From a bacterium (GTDB lineage Bacteria > UBA8248 > JACPRG01 > G963555815): 64,000 nucleotides of DNA. The position numbers and the translations under genes are program-made. The stretch spans positions 672,001 through 736,000 of the forward strand of contig CBDHDG010000006.1 of assembly GCA_965261595.1 (NCBI GenBank), read 5' to 3'. The stretch's first letter is position 1. Every line of letters begins with the position of its first letter. The notes beneath the pieces are model-generated. The model was not told the origin of the DNA. It worked only from the letters and a program-made list of their open reading frames with translations, and searched no databases. Below, in pieces: positions 9,598 to 33,848 of the stretch.

Positions 9598-9787
9598 TGT
9601 CGTTCTCTTTGACTCCGGCGGAACCACCGAATCGGGGCGTGATTGTTGACGGATTCCATGTCCGGAGGATATCCTACCCGTAGGATATTCTAGCGTTATC
9701 TCCAATTTACATTCAACCGTGGCCGGGGGAGGGAAAGCGGTCTCTTCCATCAACCCCCATCCATGTCGTCCAAGGGAGACCCACGCT

Positions 9788-10720
9788 TTGAAGATCGACA
9801 TTCACGCCCATGAGTTTCCGGAAAACTACCTGCGCGAGATTCACCGCATGGTCGAACGGGGGGAGTTCCCCGAGGTGGCGGAGACCCTGACGCCGTGGCG
9901 GATCGACGACCACCTCGCCCTCATGGAGCGGGAGGGCGTCGATATGCAGGTCCTCTCGCTGGCGGCGGCCCGATACGTGGAAGACCGGCCCCAGGCCCGG
10001 GCCCTGGCCCGGATGGTGAACGAGGCCTTCGCCGACGCCGCCGCGAAGCACCCCGGGAAGTTCGTCGCGTTCGCCTGCGTGCCGCTCGCCTTCGTGGACG
10101 ACGGGATCGCGGAGCTGGAGCACGCCGTGGGGACGCTGGGGATGCGGGGGCTCATCCTGGGGACGAACGTCGCGGGCAAGCCCTTGAACGCGCCCGAGCT
10201 CCGCCCGTTCTTTGAAACGGTCAACCGGATGAAGCTGCCCGTCCTCATCCATCCGATGTACCCGGACTGGCCTGAATCCTACTCCGATTACCGCCTCGAC
10301 CTGTGGCTCGGCTGGCCCTATGAGACCACCCACGCGGTCAGCCGGATGATCCTCTCGGGGATATTCGACGACTTTCCGGATTTTCCCCTCATCGTCTCCC
10401 ACCTGGGGGCGAACCTGCACTACATGTGCGAGCGGATCGGAAACGCGTCCCATCTGGGCTCGGCGAAGGCGGGCGTGATGGAATACCTGCGGCGCTTCTA
10501 CTACGACACGGCCGGTCCCGTCCCGGCGGCGGCGGTCGGCTGCGCTCTTGAGATGTTCGGCAGCGGGAAAATCCTCTTCGGCTCCGACGCCCCCTTCGGG
10601 CCCGGCCACGGAGAGGCGTTCATCCGCAAGGGGATCGCCTGCATCGAGGATCAGGCCCGCGGCGGCGAGGAGAAAGAGGCCATGTTCTCCGGCAACGCGC
10701 GCGGGATTCTCGGAATTTAG
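9788..10720 (+). CDS. amidohydrolase family 2 protein
   Basis: IDIHAH, VLIHP, SHLG, YYDT and ILFGSDAPF; TTG start after AGGGAG. Confidence 0.88.
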   Translation: MKIDIHAHEFPENYLREIHRMVERGEFPEVAETLTPWRIDDHLALMEREGVDMQVLSLAAARYVEDRPQARALARMVNEAFADAAAKHPGKFVAFACVPLAFVDDGIAELEHAVGTLGMRGLILGTNVAGKPLNAPELRPFFETVNRMKLPVLIHPMYPDWPESYSDYRLDLWLGWPYETTHAVSRMILSGIFDDFPDFPLIVSHLGANLHYMCERIGNASHLGSAKAGVMEYLRRFYYDTAGPVPAAAVGCALEMFGSGKILFGSDAPFGPGHGEAFIRKGIACIEDQARGGEEKEAMFSGNARGILGI

Positions 10721-10809: not shown

Positions 10810-10835
10810 GGGCGGGGACGGGGACCCGCCCCTAC
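10810..10835 (-). repeat. GTAG-type REP
   Basis: GGGCGGGGACGGGGACCCGCCCCTAC hairpin. Confidence 0.65.
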
Positions 10836-10868
10836 GGGTAAAGAGGGGTTTTTTGCGTGATTATGCCC

Positions 10869-10897
10869 TTGACACATAGTGCCACAAGATGTATATT
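10869..10897 (+). promoter_or_regulatory. sigma70-type promoter at the IS1595 left end
   Basis: TTGACA-N17-TATATT; equivalent site at 31422-31450. Confidence 0.75.
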
Positions 10898-10909
10898 ATA
10901 GGGTATGAG

Positions 10910-11068
10910 CTACTCATCCCCTGAATCATCCGATCTTTCTTTGACGATACGGTCTACTTCGGCCATCACTTCTTCCCCGAAAATGCACGTCATCAGGTGC
11001 ATGTCGTCATGCTTTAGCGCATCTTCGGGAAGTTTCCGTTCCTTTTTCTTAGGAGCATCTTGACCCAT
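10910..11068 (-). CDS. 52-aa small protein antisense in the IS1595 leader
   Basis: MGQDAPKKK...LMTCIFGEEVMAEVD; homologous to 31465-31620. Confidence 0.6.
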   Translation of the reverse strand: MGQDAPKKKERKLPEDALKHDDMHLMTCIFGEEVMAEVDRIVKERSDDSGDE

Positions 11069-11606
11069 GCAAAGCCTCCTTTCCATGCTGGACAAGTATA
11101 AAAACGATGACGAATGCCGCAATGCCATTGAGGAAATTCGCTGGCCCAATGGCGTTGCCTGTACTCGGTGCGGGGATATGAGCATCGGAGAAATTCCGAA
11201 GCGCAATCAATACCAATGCCACGGTTGCGGATATCAGTTTTCCGTGACGAGTGGAACCATCATGCACGATTCCCGCCTTCCCTTCCGCAAGTGGTTCATG
11301 GGGATCTACCTCATGTGCGTATCGAAGAAAGGGGTATCGGCAAACCAGTTGAAGGAAACTCTCGGAACCACATATCGTACGGCTTGGCACCTTTGCCACC
11401 GCATTCGTGAGGCAATGGGAAATGACCCCCTTGAAGGTCCTACGCTGGTGGGCGTTGTCGAGGTGGATGAAACCCTGATCGGCGGCAAGAAGAAGGGCAA
11501 GGGGCATGGATACAGGGGGAACAAGCAGTGGATCGCTGGAGCCATCCAGCGCGGCGGGAAGCTCCGCGTCCAGCGCATTCCGAACATTCGGCGCAAGACC
11601 CTTCAT

Positions 11607-13908
11607 CCCGCATTTCCCATATGGATGATAATTTTTAACGCCCCGAAGGCCGTTTTCTCGTGTAAAATCAAAGTGTTGGCCTCTCCCTGCCATCATCTTG
11701 CGAGGGGACCCGATGGGTGAAGCGAAAAAGAGGCCGTTGAGGCTCCAATTCGACGGTCGGCTCAGGCTGGAGTTTCACGGAGCAAAGGTTACGAGTGACG
11801 CCGGTTTGCTTGCCTATCGTGAACTGGATGAGGTGTTGGGGCTGACGAAGGCGGCCGAGGGGTTTCTGTCCGATTCACGGACGGGCGGGAACACCCGGCA
11901 CAGCCTCACCGCTTTGGTGCGCCAGTCGGTCTACAGCCGCCTGGCAGGATATAAAGACACCAATGATGCCGAGCGGCTCTGTGTCGATCCCGCCATGCGT
12001 CAGGTGGTTGGGGGGCGAGCGAAGTATCACACCGCTGCCTCCACCAGCCAGATGAGCCGATTCGAGACGCAGACCCTCACCCGGCCCCTTAACCTCAAGG
12101 CGCTGAGCGGTCTGCCCGGTGTGTTGGTGGATCGTGTCCGCAAACGCAAGCCGATTCGCAAGCTGATCCTGGACATGGACAGTTCGGTCAGCCCGACCCA
12201 CGGTGAGCAGGAAGGCTCTTCCTACAACGGCCACTTCGGCTGCACCTGCTATCACCCACTGTTTTGCTTCAACCAGTTTGGCGATCTGGAGCGGGCGCTG
12301 TTGCGCAACGGCAAGGTCCACAGCGCTGATGACTGGTGGTCTGTATTGGAGCCGGTGGTAGCTCGCTACCGGGATGCGAAGGTCTGTCGGTTTTTTCGAG
12401 GCGACGCGGCATTTGCCAAGCCGGAGGTGTACCGATACCTTGAGGCGGAGGGCTACTCCTATGCGATTCGGCTTCCGGCCAACGCCATCTTGTACAGGGA
12501 CATCGAATGCCTTCTGACCCGGCCGGTTGGCCGACCGCCCAAAAGGCCCATTATCTTCTACCACAGCGTCTCCTATCAGGCGGCTAGTTGGGAGAAGCCT
12601 CGCCGGGTGGTGGTGGCGGTCGAGTGGCACCAGGGCGAGTTGTTTCCAAGAGTCAGCTTCATCGTGACCAACCTGCACTGGCGGGAAGAGAACGTCGTGA
12701 GGTTCTACAACCAGCGTGGGACGGCGGAGCAGTGGATCAAGGAGGGCAAGTACGCCCTGAACTGGACGCGCCTGTCCTGCCACGGCTTTGAAGAGAACCA
12801 GGTCCGCTTGCAACTATTTGCCTTGGCGTACAACCTGGCAAACTTCCTGCGGCGGCTGGCGTTGCCCAGAGCGGTGAAGCACTGGTCGCTGACGACGTTA
12901 CGCGAGAAGCTGATTAAGATTGGGGCCAAGGTGGTCACCCACGCCCGGTACACCACCTTCCAGATGGCCGAGGTGGCCGTGCCGCGTCAACTGTTCAGGG
13001 CAATCCTTGAACGAATTCGACGGTTGTGGTTACCGCCTCCCGTACCAGATACCGGATGACGGAGCAGATGGCCCGGAAGCTTAGTGACGTGGTGGAGACG
13101 GGGGATCAGTCTGCGCCGAACTCCCCTGAGTGTGCCGGTAGAGCTGGGTTTTCAAGGGATTGCGGCTTTAGGACGGCCGTTGCCCCTCGATTGAGCAGAG
13201 GGTTCTGCAAAGAGACCCTGAATCTGTAGTAAAATGGGGTACTTTGATGACACAGGAGGACCGCAGGATGGCTAAGAGTGGTCATCTGGGAAATCCCGGT
13301 TTAAATCAAGACAACTCTTGTATTGACCACCCGTTGCTCTTTAACTCAATTAGAGCCCTCTTTACCGGGGCTGTCAACACCATTTCGGGCGCCTGAAACC
13401 CTGATCGGAGCGGTATCCGCCATTGGAAAACCATGTCAGCGCCGGCGTGTAAACGGGCTTGACCACCAGGTTTGGAGTCTTCGTCATTTTGCCCTTGTGT
13501 GGACTCCGCTTAGGGTCGCTAGACAGGCACCGGGCATCATCGCTTGATTCTCTCCAAGATAAGGGCAAATGTCTTCCTGGATACACCGACCTCGGCCAAC
13601 TGGAAGGTGATGTGGCGGGCGTACCGCACGAGCCGGCCGCCCATTTTGAGGAGCTTAAGCTGAAGGCCGCGTAACGACCAGTGCTTGATCCCTCTCGGCA
13701 GGCCAGCAATCCCGCATCCGAAGTCATTCTGGTTCCGTGAAACTCAAGCCTCAGCCGACGCTCAAAACGGACCTTCAACGCCCACTTTTTCGCTTCACCC
13801 ATTGGATTACCCCGCGAGAGGATGGCTCGGGGAGGCTCATGCATTGATTTTACTCCAGAAAATGTCCTCCGGTCCGACAAAAGTTATGATCCATATGGGA
13901 TATCTGGG
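11607..13908 (+). mobile_element. composite IS1380 unit copy 1 (IS1380 + inverted IS1380 relic)
   Basis: Ends CCCGCATTTCCCATATGGAT / ATCCATATGGGATATCTGGG; 5-bp TSD TTCAT. Confidence 0.9.
11713..13059 (+). CDS. IS1380 family transposase
   Basis: [41 protein letters not shown]. Confidence 0.95.
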
Positions 13909-14268
13909 TTCATGACTTCATCCAGCGCACAGTGAAGGACGAGGCCGAGGCGATCTATACGGACGAGTTGAAGTCCTATATCGGTGTAGAGGATCATGAC
14001 ACACGCCATGAAACGGTTAACCATTCCGAGGAAGAATGGGTGATTGGAGATGTTCACACCAACAGCATCGAGGGCGTGTGGTCCCTGTTCAAGCGGTCCA
14101 TTATCGGAACCTTCCACAAGATGAGCGTCAAGCATATGGACCGTTACCTTGAAGAACTCGAATGGCGACACAACAACCGAGACAACCCCCACATCTTCAT
14201 GGACACTCTTAAGCGAATCATGAACACGGAACCCCTAGAGTACAAGAGACTCACGGCTTGAGGAAGGG

Positions 14269-15435
14269 CTACGATAGAATCCCATCGGTCTTGAGTTTTG
14301 AAATCAGATAGGATTGGTCTCTATCGCCCTTTGTGCTGTTGCAAGCTCCGCACAGAAGTTGAAGGTTTTCGAGTCCATCATGACCTCCCTTGCTCCGTGG
14401 CACAATATGGTCAACCGTCAAATTCCTGAACTGGAAAAACGTCCGGCAACCGCCGCACTTCCCTTCCTGAAGCCCAAATAGCTGATGCCGGTGCGTCCGG
14501 TAATTCGGGAGCCGTTCAAGGTCCGTCCGCGTTGGTATGTCTGTTCGGCGGATAGGCTCGAAGTTATGGAACAGGTCAATCTCCTTGCGGATGCGGACCT
14601 GAACCAAGTCTGACGCCTTCTCCGCTATATCGATCCCCACCCAGTGACGGTGAAGCCTCTCGGACGCGACACAAGCCGTGGCGCATCCTGCGAATGGGTC
14701 CAGCACCATGTCGTCCTCATTGCTACTCGCCTTGATGATCCGGCTTAGGAGGGATAGGGGCTTTTGGGTAGGATATCCTAATCGCTCCGTCGCTTGTGAT
14801 CCAATGGGCCGGATATCGCTGATGATGTCCTGAATGGGGTTTCCTTCTGATACAGAAAGATACCTCTTATGCTGAGGGACTTTCCCTTTTGGGGGCCAAT
14901 AGACATGACCTGTTGCATCCAAAACATCCAGTCTTTCTTGACATGACATTTCTGCATATCCTTCCGGGAATGGAAAATCCTTTGGCAATGCACGATCTGG
15001 AGGTATTTCCCAATGCCGACCCTTGTTGGATGGGTTCACGTCACGCCACGGCATTCCTGATGAACCATGTCTGACCCCCGGACCATCGAGAGTTACTAAA
15101 CGGAACCTCCCTCTTTCATCTGAGAATCGGTAGAAATTTTCAACATATGTCGGATCGTAGTCCTCATAGACTCGATTCCAGGTGTATTTACCTGACTTTG
15201 TATAGAACAAAATGGTGTCATGGATAGGCCCCCATCGCTTCGATCTTCCATGCGCCCCAGTGCGCTTCCAGATAGTTTCATTGCGGAAATTTCTGCGTCC
15301 GAACACCGCATCCATAAGCAACTTCAGGTAATGGCTGGCCGTTGGATCGCAATGGAGGTAGATTGATCCTGTCTCCTTCAAGACTCGGCGCATTTCAAGC
15401 TGCCTCACCGCCATCATGATCAGGTAGGACTTCAT
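14269..15435 (-). pseudogene. DNA methyltransferase (N4/N6 type) fused to C-terminal HNH nuclease; 5'-truncated by IS
   Basis: GSIYLHCD, YPTQKP, VLDPFAGCAT; then CGGC..VDHIVPRSKGG..NLQLLCGACNSTKG; the catalytic DPPF/Y segment is missing at the IS junction. Confidence 0.85.
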
Positions 15436-16840
15436 TCCCCCGCTCTAGGGTTTTGTTGGACACTCGATTGATCCATGATTCATGGAGAAAGGGGTGTCGC
15501 GATGAACGAACAAAAGCAAGAGGGGGCTTTGGCGGAGGGCGCCCGCAGGGCGAACGGAGCCAAGGCCCCAGGGCATCGCAGTGAGCGGGGTCGGTTCTCC
15601 TGCCAGGCGCAAGCGGGAGGCGGTCCTGCGTCTTTTGCGGGGCGAGAGCCTGGAGACGCTCTGCCGCGAGTTGGGCACGACAGCGGCTCGGCTTTCCGCC
15701 TGGCGCGAGGCGTTCCTTCGCGGGGGCGAGGCGGCGCTCAAAGCCCGCCCGGCGGATGAGCGGGCCGAGGAGAACGCCCGGCTCAAGGCCAAGGTGGGCG
15801 AACTCACGATGGAGGGCGAGGTCCTGCGGGAGAAGATCGACCGCCTGGAGGCCGGCCGCCCTTTAGCCGGCAGGAGGTGGAGGCGATGAGTCAGGCCCGC
15901 TTCACCTCCACGGGCAGAGCCTACGGCCTGAAGCGGGTGTGCGCCCTTTGGGGCTTGGCGCGCTCCACGGTCTACGCGCAACGGCGGCGAGAGGCGGTCC
16001 CCGTTCATGAACGCCCCACGCCCAATAAGCGCGGCCCTGTGGGCCCGTGCACCGATGCGGAACTCCTCGGCCACATCCGGCAGGTCCTGGAGGACTCTCC
16101 CTTCCATGGCGAGGGCTACCGCAAGGTGTGGGCGAGGCTGCGCTTCGCGGGCATCCGCACCAGCAAGGAGCGGGTGCGTCGCCTGATGCGGGAGGCGGGG
16201 CTTCAGGCCCCCCACCGGGTGGGCAAACCCCGAGGTCCCAAGGCCCACAACGGGACCATCCGCACCGAGCGGCCCGACCGAATGTGGGGCACGGACATGA
16301 CGACGACGGTGACCACCGAGGAGGGGGTGGCCTCGGTGTTCGTGGCGGTGGATCACTGCTCGGTGGACTGCGTGGGGATCCATGCGGCCAAGAGCGGCAA
16401 CCGCTTCGAGGCCCTGGAGCCGATCCGGAAGGGGGTCGCCGAGCGCTTCGCCGGCTTGGAGGCGGACGTCGCCGAGGGGCTTAAAGTTCGTCACGACCAC
16501 GGCCCCGCCTATCTGTCCGATGACTTTCAGCGGGAGATCGCCTACCTGGGCATGACCAGTTCGCCCAGCTTCGTGCGGGCGCCCGAGGGAAATGGCTACT
16601 GTGAGTGGTTTATCCGCATCTTGAAGGAGAATCTCCTGTGGGTGCGCTCTTTCGCCACCGTAGAGGAACTGCGGTGGGCGCTGCTTGAGTTCAAAAACCT
16701 GTACAACCATCATTGGATTCTCGAGGGCTACGGCTACCGAACGCCGGCCCAGGCAAGGCAGGAAAAACTCGCTCAAGTTGCGGAGGCCGCATGAGGTCGA
16801 ATACCCTCACCCGAGTGTCCAATAACCCAGGGGCGGTCCA
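15436..16840 (+). mobile_element. IS3-like element A (orfA frameshifted near 15606)
   Basis: Same ends as other copies; 1405 bp. Confidence 0.93.
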
Positions 16841-27382: not shown

Positions 27383-30300
27383 CCCGCATTTCCCATATGG
27401 ATGATAATTTTTAACGCCCCGAAGGCCGTTTTCTCGTGTAAAATCAAGGTGTTGGCCTCTCCCTGCCATCATCTTGCGAGGGGACCCGATGGGTGAAGCG
27501 AAAAAGAGGCCGTTGAGGCTCCAATTCGACGGTCGGCTCAGGCTGGAGTTTCACGGAGCAAAGGTTACGAGTGACGCCGGTTTGCTTGCCTATCGTGAAC
27601 TGGATGAGGTGTTGGGGCTGACGAAGGCGGCCGAGGGGTTTCTGTCCGATTCACGGACGGGCGGGAACACCCGGCACAGCCTCACCGCTTTGGTGCGCCA
27701 GTCGGTCTACAGCCGCCTGGCAGGATATAAAGACACCAATGATGCCGAGCGGCTCTGTGTCGATCCCGCCATGCGTCAGGTGGTTGGGGGGCGAGCGAAG
27801 TATCACACCGCTGCCTCCACCAGCCAGATGAGCCGATTCGAGACGCAGACCCTCACCCGGCCCCTTAACCCCTCAAGGCGCTGAGCGGTCTGCCCGGTGT
27901 GTTGGTGGATCGTGTCCGCAAACGCAAGCCGATTCGCAAGCTGATCCTGGACATGGACAGTTCGGTCAGCCCGACCCACGGTGAGCAGGAAGGCTCTTCC
28001 TACAACGGCCACTTCGGCTGCACCTGCTATCACCCACTGTTTTGCTTCAACTGGACCGCCCCTGGGTTATTGGACACTCGGGTGAGGGTATTCGACCTCA
28101 TGCGGCCTCCGCAACTTGAGCGAGTTTTTCCTGCCTTGCCTGGGCCGGCGTTCGGTAGCCGTAGCCCTCGAGAATCCAATGATGGTTGTACAGGTTCTTG
28201 AACTCAAGCAGCGCCCACCGCAGTTCCTCTACGGTGGCGAAAGAGCGCACCCACAGGAGATTCTCCTTCAAGATGCGGATGAACCACTCACAGTAGCCAT
28301 TTCCCTCGGGCGCCCGCACGAAGCTGGGCGAACTGGTCATGCCCAGGTAGGCGATCTCCCGCTGAAAGTCATCGGACAGATAGGCGGGGCCGTGGTCGTG
28401 ACGAACTTTAAGCCCCTCGGCGACGTCCGCCTCCAAGCCGGCGAAGCGCTCGGCGACCCCCTGCCGGATCGGCTCCAGGGCCTCGAAGCGGTTGCCGCTC
28501 TTGGCCGCATGGATCCCCACGCAGTCCACCGAGCAGTGATCCACCGCCACGAACACCGAGGCCATCCCCTCCTCGGTGGTCACCGTCGTCGTCATGTCCG
28601 TGCCCCACATTCGGTCGGGCCGCTCGGTGCGGATGGTCCCGTTGTGGGCCTTGGGACCTCGGGGTTTGCCCACCCGGTGGGGGGCCTGAAGCCCCGCCTC
28701 CCGCATCAGGCGACGCACCCGCTCCTTGCTGGTGCGGATGCCCGCGAAGCGCAGCCTCGCCCACACCTTGCGGTAGCCCTCGCCATGGAAGGGAGAGTCC
28801 TCCAGGACCTGCCGGATGTGGCCGAGGAGTTCCGCATCGGTGCACGGGCCCACAGGGCCGCGCTTATTGGGCGTGGGGCGTTCATGAACGGGGACCGCCT
28901 CTCGCCGCCGTTGCGCGTAGACCGTGGAGCGCGCCAAGCCCCAAAGGGCGCACACCCGCTTCAGGCCGTAGGCTCTGCCCGTGGAGGTGAAGCGGGCCTG
29001 ACTCATCGCCTCCACCTCCTGCCGGCTAAAGGGCGGCCGGCCTCCAGGCGGTCGATCTTCTCCCGCAGGACCTCGCCCTCCATCGTGAGTTCGCCCACCT
29101 TGGCCTTGAGCCGGGCGTTCTCCTCGTCCCGCTCATCCGCCGGGCGGGCTTTGAGCGCCGCCTCGCCCCCGCGAAGGAACGCCTCGCGCCAGGCGGAAAG
29201 CCGAGCCGCTGTCGTGCCCAACTCGCGGCAGAGCGTCTCCAGGCTCTCGCCCCGCAAAAGACGCAGGACCGCCTCCCGCTTGCGCTGGCAGGAGAACCGA
29301 CCCCGCTCACTGCGATGCCCTGGGGCCTTGGCTCCGTTCGCCCTGCGGGCGCCCTCCGCCAAAGCCCCCTCTTGCTTTTGTTCGTTCATCGCGACACCCC
29401 TTTCTCCATGAATCATGGATCAATCGAGTGTCCAACAAAACCCTAGAGCGGGGGACAACCAGTTTGGCGATCTGGAGCGGGCGCTGTTGCGCAACGGCAA
29501 GGTCCACAGCGCTGATGACTGGTGGTCTGTATTGGAGCCGGTGGTAGCTCGCTACCGGGATGCGAAGGTCTGTCGGTTTTTTCGAGGCGACGCGGCATTT
29601 GCCAAGCCGGAGGTGTACCGATACCTTGAGGCGGAGGGCTACTCCTATGCGATTCGGCTTCCGGCCAACGCCATCTTGTACAGGGACATCGAATACCTTC
29701 TGACCCGGCCGGTTGGCCGACCGCCCAAAAGGCCCATTATCTTCTACCACAGCGTCTCCTATCAGGCGGCTAGTTGGGAGAAGCCTCGCCGGGTGGTGGT
29801 GGCGGTCGAGTGGCACCAGGGCGAGTTGTTTCCAAGAGTCAGCTTCATCGTGACCAACCTGCACTGGCGGGAAGAGAACGTCGTGAGGTTCTACAACCAG
29901 CGTGGGACGGCGGAGCAGTGGATCAAGGAGGGCAAGTACGCCCTGAACTGGACGCGCCTGTCCTGCCACGGCTTTGAAGAGAACCAGGTTCGCTTGCAAC
30001 TATTTGCCTTGGCGTACAACCTGGCAAACTTCCTGCGGCGGCTGGCGTTGCCCAGAGCGGTGAAGCACTGGTCGCTGACGACGTTACGCGAGAAGCTGAT
30101 TAAGATTGGGGCCAAGGTGGTCACCCACGCCCGGCACACCACCTTCCAGATGGCCGAGGTGGCCGTGCCGCGTCAACTGTTCAGGGCAATCCTTGAACGA
30201 ATTCGACGGTTGTGGTTACCGCCTCCCGTACCAGATACCGGATGACGGAGCAGATGGCCCGGAAGCTTAGTGACGTGGTGGAGACGGGGGATCAGTCTGT

Positions 30301-31094
30301 GCCGAACTCCCCTGAGTGTGCCGGTATAGCTGGGTTTTCAAGGGATTGCGGCTTTAGGACGGCCGTTGCCCCTCGATTGAGCAGAGGGTTCTGCAAAGAG
30401 ACCCTGAATCTGTAGTAAAATGGGGTACTTTGATGACACAGGAGGACCGCAGGATGGCTAAGAGTGGTCATCTGGGAAATCCCGGTTTAAATCAAGACAA
30501 CTCTTGTGTTGACCACCCGTTGCTCTTTAACTCAATTAGAGCCCTCTTTACCGGGGCTGTCAACACCATTTCGGGCGCCTGAAACCCTGATCGGAGCGGT
30601 ATCCGCCATTGGAAAACCATGTCAGCGCCGGCGTGTAAACGGGCTTGACCACCAGGTTTGGAGTCTTCGTCATTTTGCCCTTGTGTGGACTCCGCTTAGG
30701 GTCGCTAGACAGGCACCGGGCATCATCGCTTGATTCTCTCCAAGATAAGGGCAAATGTCTTCCTGGATACACCGACCTCGGCCAACTGGAAGGTGATGTG
30801 GCGGGCGTACCGCACGAGCCGGCCGCCCATTTTGAGGAGCTTAAGCTGAAGGCCGCGTAACGACCAGTGCTTGATCCCTCTCGGCAGGCCAGCAATCCCG
30901 CATCCGAAGTCATTCTGGTTCCGTGAAACTCAAGCCTCAGCCGACGCTCAAAACGGACCTTCAACGCCCACTTTTTCGCTTCACCCATTGGATTACCCCG
31001 CGAGAGGATGGCTCGGGGAGGCTCATGCATTGATTTTACTCCAGAAAATGTCCTCCGGTCCGACAAAAGTTATGATCCATATGGGATATCTGGG
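27383..31094 (+). mobile_element. composite IS1380 unit copy 2, interrupted by IS3-like A
   Basis: Near-identical to 11607-13908; 5-bp TSD ATAAA; +2 frameshift near 27870. Confidence 0.9.
28052..29455 (-). mobile_element. IS3-like element A inserted in IS1380 transposase
   Basis: 4-bp TSD CAAC. Confidence 0.95.
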
Positions 31095-31464
31095 ATAAAG
31101 AGCGTTGCTTCCGCCTCTGGCTCGCCGAGAAGTCCGTCCGTGAAATGTGGAATGAAATGAGGCGGGAAATCTTGGAAAGCTCCATTCGAAGTTGGGTCAC
31201 GGATTGGGAGAGGGGCAAACAAGGAAGCTGGATCCCAAAGACCAAAGAGCATGGCTCAGAGGCTATAGCCGTAACCCTGATTTTCGCATACGGCTCAAAT
31301 CTCGACTGTGCACAGATGCGGGGCCGCTGTCCATCAGCTAGGTTTCATTGCATTGCGAAGCTCAAGGATCACCGGCTCGCGTTTCCCCGGAAATCCAAGA
31401 AAAGGAATCGTGATTATATACTTGACAAAGTGAGCCACAATATGTATATTTAGAGCATGAACAA

Positions 31465-31620
31465 TTACTCAACAACCTTATCCTTCTCGGACCTATCGGC
31501 AACAACTTTGTCGACCTCTTCCATGACTTCTTTTCCAAAAATGCACTCCATGAGGTCATGGTTGTCTTTCTCCAGAACGTCATCCGGCAATGTCTTTTTC
31601 TTGGGAGATTTTTGATCCAT
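31465..31620 (-). CDS. 51-aa small protein antisense in the IS1595 leader
   Basis: MDQKSPKKK..LMECIFGKEVMEEVD; homologous to 10910-11068. Confidence 0.6.
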   Translation of the reverse strand: MDQKSPKKKTLPDDVLEKDNHDLMECIFGKEVMEEVDKVVADRSEKDKVVE

Positions 31621-32506
31621 GGAAAACCTCATATCCTTGATTGACAAATTCAACTGCGATGACAAATGCCGTGAGGCTCTTGAGGCAATACGCTGGCCCG
31701 CTGGCGTTTGGTGCACCCGTTGTGGCGACCTAAACGTACTTGAACTGACCAAGCATAATAGGTGGGAATGTAAATCATGCGGCTACCAGTTCAGCGTTAC
31801 GGCTGGAACCATTATGCACGATTCCCACCTCCCGTTGCGCAAGTGGTTTATCGCTATCTACCTCATGTGTGAGTCCAAAAAGGGCATTTCCGCCAACCAA
31901 ATGAAGCGGACGCTTGGCGTTTCCTACAAAACGGCTTGGTATCTCTGCCACCGAATCCGCCAAGCGATGGGAAACGATCCCTTTGAAGGCCCTACGCTTG
32001 TTGGAATCGTAGAAGTCGACGAAACACTTGTAGGTGGCAAGGTGAAGGGCAAAGGCCACGCTTACAAGGGCAACAAGGCGTGGGTTGCAGGAGCCATCCA
32101 GCGCGATGGGAAAGTTCGCATTGAGCGCATCCCCAACATCAAGCGTGGCACCCTCCATGATTTCATCAAGCGCAACGTGAAAGACGAGGCAGAAGCCATA
32201 TATACCGATGAATTGCGCTCTTATATCGGCATTGCAGATCACGACACGCGCCATGAAACCGTGCGGCATTCCGAAGAAGAATGGGTTGTGGGAGACGTTC
32301 ATACGAACAGCATAGAAGGCGTCTGGAGCCTGTTCAAGCGTTCTCTTATGGGCGCGTTTCACAAAATGAGCATCAAGCATATGGACAAATATCTTGAGGA
32401 ACTGGAATGGAGATACAACAACCGCAATAACCCCCATATTTTCAGGGATACGCTGGCTAGAATTATGGGAACCAAGCATCTTACTTACCGGGAGTTGGTG
32501 GCTTAA
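31619..32506 (+). CDS. IS1595 family transposase
   Basis: Zn ribbon, VEVDETLVGG, YTDE, HTNSIEGVWS. Confidence 0.95.
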   Translation: MENLISLIDKFNCDDKCREALEAIRWPAGVWCTRCGDLNVLELTKHNRWECKSCGYQFSVTAGTIMHDSHLPLRKWFIAIYLMCESKKGISANQMKRTLGVSYKTAWYLCHRIRQAMGNDPFEGPTLVGIVEVDETLVGGKVKGKGHAYKGNKAWVAGAIQRDGKVRIERIPNIKRGTLHDFIKRNVKDEAEAIYTDELRSYIGIADHDTRHETVRHSEEEWVVGDVHTNSIEGVWSLFKRSLMGAFHKMSIKHMDKYLEELEWRYNNRNNPHIFRDTLARIMGTKHLTYRELVA

Positions 32507-33459
32507 AGAGTTCATCTTGTTTAGATGGTGGAATGACATCTTTAATTTCTACAACATAATAACTTTCCACACCTGTCGGATCATTATTTTCATCGACTTC
32601 AACTTCAAGTCTCAAGATCACATCTAGAAAACTTCCCACAGGAAGAGGGATATTCCCTTTTTGGAATTCCTCAAGCCATATGACATCTTCTATTTTTGCT
32701 TCTATTTGTCTACTTAAAATGAATGACCACTTTTGAGTCTCCCAGGAGATCAGGTTTTTTGACTTTCAATTTTGTGGGAAAGGTAGTTTTGTGAACACGA
32801 GGTTGCACTTCAAGAGAATCTACGTCCATATAGTTTATTTTTTTCCCCTCCTCAGACGTAATTTCCTCGATAATTTGTTCGTCTTGCTCAAATTGCAACT
32901 TATCGTACCCCTCCTTTGTAAGGGGATTTACAACATCTTTTGCGTTCTTCAGGACTTCCTCATCACCCATCATAATGAACGTATTATTGTTGACGGTTAT
33001 ATTTGAGTTGTCGCCAGAATTAGTAATTCTGACGGTATCACCGTCTTCCTTAATGTCCATCTCATTGAAAGAAACACTCTGATTTACAATCCATTTATAA
33101 AGACGAAAAAGACCTACTGAAGATGCACCTATAATACCGACCCACTCTGCGATGTCTTTGGCTGTAGCAATTTTTTCGCTGGATAAAAGCAAAGTCAGAT
33201 GCTGGATAATGCTTTGAGTTATTTGAATATCAAATTGAAAGCACTTTTGCTCAGAATCAACATTAACTAGAACTTTGACTGATGACCTATCGCCATTGAA
33301 TTTTCTATTGGCGATCTTCACAATTTCCGACAAGCCCAATAGAGCAGGAGCAAGATCGGCAACATCCATAGAATGCTCAGCTAAGGCAGGGCCATCATAT
33401 CGAACCGTTGTAGACACTTTAGACATTTGACTCAGTGCCTCTTTGTCTTGATTTTCCAT
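32503..33459 (-). CDS. low-GC passenger hypothetical protein (frameshifted near 32730 and 32645)
   Basis: YDGPALAEHSMDVADLAPALL...; reading continues in shifted frames toward the tnp stop; own promoter TTGACA-N17-TAATAT in the right IR; 3' end approximate. Confidence 0.7.
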
Positions 33460-33848
33460 GGCACTGAATATTACATCTTGCGCTACTCTTTGTCAAGTAT
33501 ATAATCACGAAAGGAATTGCGGGGTAGCAGCGCCCGTTCCAGATAAAGGCCGGAGTGTATGGGGCGTCGTTTATGAAATCGAAGAGGTAGACCTTTCTGC
33601 CCTGGACAAATGCGAAGGGTATTATCCAGAACGCAAAGAACGCTTGAATGCTTACAACAGAAGGAGCGGTCAGATCTTCGAGAAGGGGGACGAGCAACGA
33701 CCCCTCATAGCCTGGATTTATTTCGCTGTAGAGCAATCAAGTCCACCACCTCCTAGTTCGGAATACGCTACCCTTATCCTGGGTGGGGGAAGGTTCTGGG
33801 GGCTTCCCGAAGACTACATCAATGAGCTTGAGCAGATCGAGGTCATGT

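Follow-up and report, generated by a model that had tools for sequence, protein, structure and literature searches.

A conserved antisense small gene and a putative leaderless reading frame in the transposase leader of IS1595-family insertion sequences

When both strands of a short transposase leader are open, which of them is read into protein? This question is raised by two diverged insertion sequences (IS) of the IS1595 family, denoted A and B, that are located in a 64,000-nucleotide stretch of bacterial DNA (lineage UBA8248; assembly GCA_965261595.1, contig CBDHDG010000006.1, positions 672,001 to 736,000), hereafter the window, to which all coordinates refer unless another locus is named. 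In each copy, the leader of the transposase gene (tnp) contains a small open reading frame (ORF) on the sense strand and another one, of nearly the same length, on the antisense strand. Comparison with related elements indicates that the antisense ORF very probably encodes a genuine small protein, and that the sense ORF is maintained as a start codon, an open frame and a stop codon rather than as a protein sequence and may well function as a leaderless upstream ORF (uORF) that bridges the leader.

The layout of the leader, which had been outlined in a first-pass annotation of the window, is the same in both copies and was reproduced in every detail. The left inverted repeat (10856..10904 in copy A and 31409..31456 in element B, both on the plus strand) includes an inward-directed promoter of the form TTGACA-17-TATATT, which spans 10869-10897 in A (-35 box at 10869-10874, -10 box at 10892-10897) and 31422-31450 in B (-35 box at 31422-31427, -10 box at 31445-31450) and agrees with the consensus at 11 of the 12 positions in each copy. 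The sense ORF of 52 codons opens with an ATG that lies 7 nt past the -10 box in A (10905..11063, plus strand, TGA at 11061-11063) and 6 nt past it in B (31457..31615, plus strand, TGA at 31613-31615), and in both copies the TGA is separated by 3 nt from the transposase ATG, which is in the same frame. Shine-Dalgarno-like motifs precede the transposase start, namely GGAG 12 nt ahead of the ATG in A (11051..11054, plus strand) and GGGAG at 31603-31607 in B. On the opposite strand, the antisense ORF has its ATG inside the CATG of the transposase start and encodes 52 amino acids in A (10910..11068, minus strand) and 51 amino acids in B (31465..31620, minus strand). Its own Shine-Dalgarno sequence is found 6 nt upstream of the ATG, AGGAGG at 11080-11075 in A and GAGG at 31630-31627 in B, the latter being supplied by transposase codons 3-4 (AAC CTC). 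The two ORFs overlap by 154 nt. In the ORF listing the antisense frames extend further, from upstream TTG codons, to 98 amino acids in A and 95 amino acids in B. The leaders of A and B differ by two 6-nt indels, the alignment of the two antisense peptides offered in the annotation stands (56% identity), and the wobble positions of the two frames do coincide, as had been pointed out.

One such ORF pair could well arise by chance, given that at least 50 stop-free codons on both strands were retained in 659 of 5000 dinucleotide shuffles of the 168-nt leader of A and in 606 of 5000 for B, whereas its conservation over seven lineages exceeds what chance would give. These seven independent leader lineages, two from the window and five from public genomes, make up the comparison set. 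One scan of species-representative genomes yielded 27 loci, among which those designated L001-L007, with 77-90% transposase identity, all possess a leader of ~160 nt with both ORFs; L002 and L003 are identical copies and L005 and L006 are near-identical, so that together with A and B there are nine copies in seven lineages. The sense ATG, the TGA, the open sense frame and the antisense ORF are kept in 7/7 of these lineages, which bears on the point that the annotation had singled out for checking, namely whether start, stop and frame persist in homologous elements.

Given the shared wobble positions, the annotation had held the two strands to be indistinguishable with respect to selection. This turned out not to be the case, for changes that are silent in one frame only separate the strands cleanly. 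Wobble changes were classified by their effect in each frame, using only sites with four identical neighbouring non-wobble bases in the given pair. Changes silent in both frames occur at a rate of 0.714 (67 differences over 93.8 sites), and changes that are silent in the antisense frame and alter the sense peptide at a rate of 0.753 (31 over 41.2). Changes that alter the antisense peptide occur at 0.068 where they are silent in the sense frame (5 over 73.2) and at 0.139 where both peptides are altered (4 over 28.8). In other words, antisense-altering wobble changes are about ten times rarer than silent ones, and changes whose effect is confined to the sense peptide occur just as often as silent ones. 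The rate of the antisense-silent, sense-altering class exceeds that of the opposite class in 99.9% of 2000 column bootstraps, and the unambiguous core columns alone give 0.745, 0.849, 0.061 and 0.118 in the same order. The control was the transposase gene set against a phantom frame on its opposite strand, for which the corresponding rates are 0.712, 0.626, 0.066 and 0.029. Because the leader rates match this control, the antisense ORF appears to evolve as the transposase gene does, that is, in a gene-like manner, and the sense ORF as the phantom frame does.

Measures at the level of amino acids and codons give the same order of the two strands. The mean BLOSUM62 score per column of the antisense peptide is 2.58 against 1.56 in a permutation null (z 8.1, 0/2000), and that of the sense peptide is 1.33 against a null of 0.97 (z 2.3, p 0.009). 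The minimum numbers of changes at antisense codon positions 1, 2 and 3 are 60, 41 and 88 over 49 codons, the same order of positions as in the transposase gene (0.63, 0.36 and 1.50 changes per codon, respectively).

The accessory protein on the antisense strand, which the annotation had put forward as one of two options, is strongly supported by this purifying selection, by a Shine-Dalgarno sequence in 7/7 lineages and by 62 cluster representatives in protein databases, and there is very little doubt, as judged from sequence conservation, that the minus strand encodes a real and conserved small protein. The predicted protein has 49-56 amino acids in the seven lineages and ~50-60 across the wider family, and consists of a Lys/Arg-rich N-terminus, a core of the pattern LP.D...D(H/R).(L/I/V)ME.(I/L)FGK..MKE(V/I)D and a variable tail. 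The Shine-Dalgarno sequence upstream of its ATG is AGGAGG or GAGG at 6 nt in five lineages; of the other two, one has GGAG at 9 nt and the other GAGG at 12 nt. The motif lies in transposase codons 3-4, and in the five module-bearing lineages where Asn-Leu supplies it, the Leu codon of tnp is CTC, as compared with CTG or CTA in 8/8 relatives that lack the module. The 62 representatives were obtained at E <= 1e-3 in a profile search of 1.84 billion representatives and are mostly 45-60 amino acids long; two of them are unrelated repeat proteins. At least seven longer family matches occupy the same genomic place, since their reading continues into the antisense of a transposase N-terminus. Among gene-caller predictions, in a set of 5.8 billion proteins, there are 18 relatives of 50-56 amino acids for the antisense peptide and one for the sense peptide. 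AlphaFold2 modelled the antisense peptide with a mean pLDDT of 74.3 (19-row alignment) as a two-helix hairpin, with helices at residues 22-30 and 32-48 and a coil N-terminus; for the sense peptide the pLDDT was 57.9 and no secondary structure was predicted, with an alignment of 7 rows, a depth unequal to the 19 rows available for the antisense peptide.

This protein appears, from sequence and model searches, to represent an unnamed family. None of the 51 members compared with Pfam matched a family at the cut-off, no match was found in NCBIfam or PADLOC, the 51-member profile retrieved no PDB sequence at E <= 10, and a Foldseek search of the model against PDB returned nothing below E 9.9. A ribbon-helix-helix fold (Arc/MetJ/CopG) was considered on account of the K-R-K-L-P-x-D-x-L motif and set aside, as Pfam, PDB-sequence and Foldseek searches give no match to such proteins. 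A near-palindrome in the core of the module, CCATGAGGTCATGG, at 31548-31561 of element B and also present in L001 and L002, was flagged as terminator-like on both strands; it arises from the conserved His-Asp-Leu-Met codons of the antisense protein, and with so small a loop it does not make a convincing hairpin.

On the sense strand, the peptide is not conserved as a protein, and the ATG, the open frame and the TGA are conserved in 7/7 lineages. The ATG is located 6-7 nt past the -10 box in every lineage amid variable flanks, and in L004 it shifts along with the promoter. The right ends of B, L002/L003 and L005/L006 show a similar promoter-to-ATG spacing of 6-8 nt, the ATG there being the start of a cargo ORF. 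At the other end of the sense ORF, the arrangement TGA-NNN-ATG is present in 7/7 lineages, and GGAG or GGGG is found 8-12 nt upstream of the transposase ATG in each of them. The ORF consists of 52 codons in 6/7 lineages despite compensating internal indels. The two ATGs, that of the leader and that of the transposase, are spaced exactly 162 nt apart in six of the seven (A, B, L001, L002, L006 and L007), and the antisense N-terminus before the LP motif varies from 9 to 13 residues, so the indels are compensated elsewhere.

The sense stop codon leaves a trace in the codon usage of the antisense gene. Of 49 ungapped wobble columns, four are invariant and three of these are Met codons; among the 46 degenerate wobbles a single one does not vary, namely the T of antisense codon 2 (GGT, GAT, GCT, GCT, ACT, ACT and GCT), which is the A of the sense TGA, and T accounts for a share of 0.19 among the third bases of four-fold codons elsewhere. 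Six lineages have CAA as antisense codon 3 and the seventh has CAC, which preserves the TG of the sense stop in each case. In the wider family, Q or H occurs within residues 2-7 in 49 of 56 full-length members, and Q and H together make up 3.3% of the residues beyond position 7. Within the frame, stop avoidance might be visible at an Asp/Asn-His site, where the codon ends in C in 5/5 lineages, but this indication is weak given that the site is homologous and GAC is the commoner codon anyway (30 vs 19). Tyr, at 8 of 3103 residues in the family, fits an open sense frame but is rarer than that would require and so was not used as evidence. The leaderless uORF coupled to tnp, the other option raised in the annotation, is thus moderately supported, by the conserved ATG, TGA and frame and not by the peptide, which drifts neutrally.

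A leader module that is read on both strands is the explanation that we favor overall, with moderate confidence. Several observations weigh against it. The pair counts in the wobble test derive from seven DNA lineages only and so are not independent. The small protein has no match of any kind that points to an activity. In 5/7 lineages the promoter scan, which covers sigma-70-type sites only, detected no such site in the 500 nt upstream of the antisense gene, and in the other lineages it returned two weak candidates at differing positions; the sole strong minus-strand promoter of element B is that of the right inverted repeat, ~1.9 kb away. The remaining reservations concern the sense ORF and bear equally on an alternative in which only the antisense gene is functional, the sense ORF is a phantom whose ATG and TGA are kept by the context of the promoter start site or by a preference for certain codons at antisense positions 2 and 3, and tnp, behind a long leader that is not translated, relies on a GGAG and an ATG of its own. 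The sense peptide drifts neutrally; the openness of its frame follows almost automatically from the composition of the antisense gene (0-2 at-risk sites per sequence); 12-13% of leader shuffles leave neither strand closed; and the strand opposite tnp often contains long phantom ORFs in these elements. A start-proximal codon preference of the antisense gene could account for the invariant NNT at codon 2, and the transposase gene, with a GGAG-type motif of its own 8-12 nt ahead of the ATG in all lineages, may not need coupling. Furthermore, the N-terminal Q or H is absent in 7 of the 56 members, and in one of the 56, P0009, a His-Tyr pair makes a stop unavoidable in the sense frame. We consider this alternative possible but on balance doubtful, because it has to accommodate an ATG that is invariant at 6-7 nt past the -10 box in 7/7 lineages and absent in 8/8 module-less relatives, a sole invariant degenerate wobble that happens to complete the sense TGA, the N-terminal Q or H in the large majority of the family, and an equal promoter-to-ATG geometry that opens real cargo ORFs at the right ends.

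The reverse arrangement, with only the sense uORF functional, possibly as a peptide, and the antisense ORF a by-product of the Ser/Leu/Phe-rich sense sequence, is very improbable. The sense start, stop and 52-codon length are indeed better conserved than the length of the antisense protein, and the sense BLOSUM score is slightly above its null, but the near-equality of the sense-altering and the silent rates (0.753 vs 0.714), set against an antisense-altering rate of only 0.068, speaks for the opposite strand, as do the excess of position-2 over position-1 changes when the leader is read in the sense frame, the sense peptide's lack of AlphaFold2 structure and the 18 gene-caller relatives versus one. 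Hardly more probable is a leader that is translated on neither strand and serves as a structured RNA or as the template of a non-coding antisense RNA comparable to RNA-OUT of IS10. A transcript of the minus strand, whatever its nature, would anneal to the ribosome-binding site and start of tnp; yet the antisense frame is under selection at the amino-acid level, and a structured leader RNA as the main explanation is disfavored by single folds that are not significant (z -1.32 and -1.04), by a weak RNAalifold consensus (-3.8 kcal/mol, double changes in 2 of 19 pairs) and by the lack of an Rfam match in the leader, the one weak match (E 0.3, 15 bits vs a cut-off of 60) being located upstream of the element. 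Read-through or recoding of the in-frame TGA, which would produce a transposase with a 54-residue N-terminal extension from the leaderless ATG, is as hard to credit as a functional sense strand alone. A common frame for the sense ORF, the TGA and tnp is seen in 7/7 lineages, but the CATG overlap dictates it, and so it carries no independent weight; the hypothetical extension shows neutral evolution, the ATG after the TGA is conserved and has GGAG upstream, and the module-less relatives start at the equivalent Met.

If the leader is indeed read on both strands, the promoter in the left inverted repeat would give rise to an mRNA that begins at or within one base of the sense AUG. Ribosomes would initiate on it in the leaderless mode, translate ~52 codons whose amino-acid sequence is irrelevant, and stop at the UGA 3 nt before the transposase AUG, where, with GGAG 8-12 nt upstream, they might re-initiate or open the site. 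Such bridging translation would carry transposase expression across the embedded antisense gene, would keep the pyrimidine-rich (55-62%) and poorly structured leader covered with ribosomes and perhaps protected against Rho termination, and would limit transposase synthesis to transcripts initiated at the promoter of the element itself. Speculatively, and by analogy with other small IS-encoded regulators, transposition may be restrained or tuned by the small protein, by its mRNA, or by both. The putative antisense mRNA would be a complete complement of the leader, the ribosome-binding site and the tnp start, and the two mRNAs would therefore exclude each other. An extended scheme, which we regard as speculative, is that the same 154 bp are translated on both strands, into a micro-protein and as a neutral bridge ORF, that the mutually exclusive complementary mRNAs together with the protein form a two-state transposition switch, and that the same leaderless start expresses captured cargo at the other end of the element. 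Of the unannotated regulatory module suggested in the annotation, then, the module itself is supported and the regulatory role stays conjectural, no antisense promoter having emerged from the scan.

The module has a restricted distribution among relatives of the elements. Eight more distant elements (L008-L015, 36-45% transposase identity) retain the same inverted repeat and the same -35 and -10 boxes, and in 8/8 of them the transposase ATG follows after a leader of 18-30 nt with a Shine-Dalgarno motif; none of the eight has a small ORF or an ATG after the -10 box. Because these relatives keep the repeat and the promoter without the module, the leader appears to be a module of ~160 bp that was acquired by one clade of cargo-carrying IS1595-family elements. 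On plasmids, 523 relatives of the transposase were detected, all with less than 60% identity, and the small peptide is not present in any of the four that were inspected (L028-L031, ~38-42% transposase identity); a blastn search of plasmids with element B and a tblastn search of plasmids and phages with the small peptide gave no match. Within the module-bearing group, L002/L003 and L005/L006 are built in the same way as the window elements, and 8-bp target duplications are present in L002 (TATGTTTC) and L003 (CAACGATC). The element ends read CGTGATTAT, GGTAATTAT, GGTGATTAT and GGCGATTAT. Cargo was seen in B, A, L001, L002 and L005/L006. L005 and L006 reside in one genome and have the same sequence from the leader ATG on. 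The left end is missing in L005: at ~1400-1500 of this locus, unrelated sequence, without inverted repeat or promoter, is located right upstream of the leader ATG, and the break point falls within one base of the proposed transcription start.

Both window copies belong to the IS1595 family, in agreement with the annotation. The catalytic domain DDE_Tnp_IS1595 (PF12762) was detected in the transposase of B with E 9.6e-35 and in the truncated transposase of A with E 6.4e-5 (23.4 bits, under the 27-bit cut-off of the family), the N-terminal zinc ribbon (PF12760) with E 1.1e-10 in B and 1.6e-12 in A, and NF033547 matches both transposases (E 1.9e-61 for B). The two proteins are 70% identical over the portion that both retain.

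Element B is complete and larger than the IS of ~1.1 kb envisaged in the annotation: it extends over 31409-33509 (2101 bp), with 21 identical terminal bases at 31409 and 33509 and with the left-end motif found again, inverted, at 33487-33506. It is flanked by a target-site duplication of 8 bp, AAAGGAAT, read directly at 31401..31408 on the left and identical at 33510..33517 on the right. The right inverted repeat (33460..33509, minus strand) contains an inward promoter, TTGACA-17-TAATAT (33496-33468). Between the ends, the element encodes an intact transposase of 295 amino acids, assigned by the domain matches given above (31619..32506, plus strand), and a cargo protein of 249 amino acids (32710..33459, minus strand), the ATG of which lies 8 nt past the -10 box of the right-end promoter. 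The cargo matches the PADLOC defence candidate PDC-S42 (E 1e-40) and the NCBIfam family LAPAL_fam (E 7e-39). Its first 11 residues are poorly conserved (5/11 identical to L006, against 54/63 afterwards), and the family profiles begin only at residue 12 or 18; on the evidence of these alignments, the N-terminus looks like a neutral run-in from a leaderless start. Downstream of the cargo gene, a 52-amino-acid piece (32481-32639, minus strand) overlaps, in antisense orientation, with the 3' end of tnp; because it resembles a piece in L006, the cargo gene of B may be frameshifted in the window; the cargo gene of L006 (2364-3341 of that locus, minus strand) is itself broken into three pieces.

Copy A is part of a nest of insertion sequences. 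Its left end was placed at 10856, where the similarity to B and to L001-L015 begins. The transposase gene is cut by a PF13701-type IS (~11607-13907) into an N-terminal part (11067..11606, plus strand) and a C-terminal part (13908..14261, plus strand), the latter with 79% identity to residues 179-295 of the transposase of B. Its cargo is an ORF of 388 amino acids (14269-15435, minus strand) with a type II DNA methyltransferase domain and an HNH nuclease domain, apparently cut on the 5' side by an IS3-like element (15445-16800, in which a pair of overlapping ORFs occupies 15581-16794). A related methyltransferase is also encoded in L001, there on the tnp strand. No right end was found for copy A in this region, which the IS3-like element interrupts at ~15440. 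The PF13701-type (IS1380-like) element is present twice in the window, in copies that are 99.5% identical; the second copy (27383-28051 and 29456-30686, onward to ~31093) is located ~315 bp to the left of element B and is itself interrupted by ~1.4 kb. Immediately upstream of copy A (10812-10855) there is a GC-rich hairpin followed by a T run (GGGCGGGGACGGGGACCCGCCCC ... GGGGTTTTTT), directly after which A is inserted; this looks like the terminator of the upstream host gene at 9719-10720.

Elements of the IS1595 family have terminal inverted repeats and generate 8-bp target-site duplications. The ISNwi1-type subgroup is characterized by ends of the form GGnnATTAT and by passenger genes inside the inverted repeats (ISfinder, Siguier et al.). 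The elements described here combine a DDE_Tnp_IS1595 domain and a Zn ribbon with 8-bp duplications, variable cargo between tnp and the right end, and ends that seem to be of the GGnnATTAT type, and they may be related to this subgroup.

The leader module itself can be compared with several modes of small-scale IS control. In IS10/Tn10, RNA-OUT is a short non-coding RNA with a mapped promoter that acts against RNA-IN. The present leader is similar in that an opposite-strand transcript would cover the ribosome-binding site and start of the transposase gene, so that control would be exerted where tnp begins, directly inside the IS terminus, but unlike in IS10, the opposite strand encodes a protein that appears to be under selection, and no promoter was found for it, there being no conserved sigma-70-type minus-strand site within 500 nt. 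InsA of IS1 and OrfA of IS3/IS911 are small regulators, encoded on the sense strand, that share the DNA-binding domain of the transposase through frameshifting and limit transposition. The antisense protein shares with them its small size and its origin in the region upstream of the catalytic part, and differs in being encoded on the other strand and unrelated to the transposase. For the sense ORF, the relevant precedents are leaderless mRNAs and short ORFs, such as that of lambda cI transcribed from PRM and the mycobacterial leaderless short ORFs. Here, too, an ATG is located at the expected transcription start with no Shine-Dalgarno sequence ahead, and the short ORF ends at the start of the next gene; unlike known leaderless uORFs, this putative one is located inside an IS, spans an opposite-strand gene nearly from end to end (154 nt of overlap) and specifies a neutral peptide, and its transcription start is predicted from the -10-to-ATG geometry.

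The closest functional parallel may be Arc, which, according to a recent report, is a ribbon-helix-helix repressor that is encoded by IS605-family elements and binds and represses the element's own promoter (bioRxiv 10.64898/2026.09.24.754181). Both cases involve a very small accessory protein inside a compact IS, encoded beside the transposition genes. Unlike IS605 Arc, the present gene belongs to an IS1595-family element, is antisense in the transposase leader and shares the palindrome of the start codon, and its product has no Pfam, PDB-sequence or Foldseek match to ribbon-helix-helix proteins. By analogy with Arc, promoter repression would be the most plausible role of the small protein. 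In the literature searched by title and by the beginning of the abstract, we found no account of an antisense small gene or a leaderless uORF in an IS1595 leader, which is weak evidence of novelty given that the primary description of the family was not covered. The module is a variant on known themes of IS control, built on an unnamed family of small proteins.

Insertion sequences are thought to be nearly minimal, and a hidden, conserved second gene in the transposase leader adds an unnamed protein family to the means by which they might control themselves. The locus also offers a clear natural example of two frames that overlap almost completely in antiparallel orientation and can still be separated, one of them selected as a protein and the other conserved solely in its start codon, its openness and its stop codon. 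It thus opens to direct testing, by a few mutations that leave the product of the opposite strand unchanged, the disputed question of whether a bacterial locus is translated on both strands and whether a uORF can matter when its peptide has no meaning. Finally, defence-type cargo, such as the methyltransferase-HNH fusion and the PADLOC candidate, is located behind the same end-embedded promoter, and the way in which these elements are switched would therefore bear on the spread of such genes.

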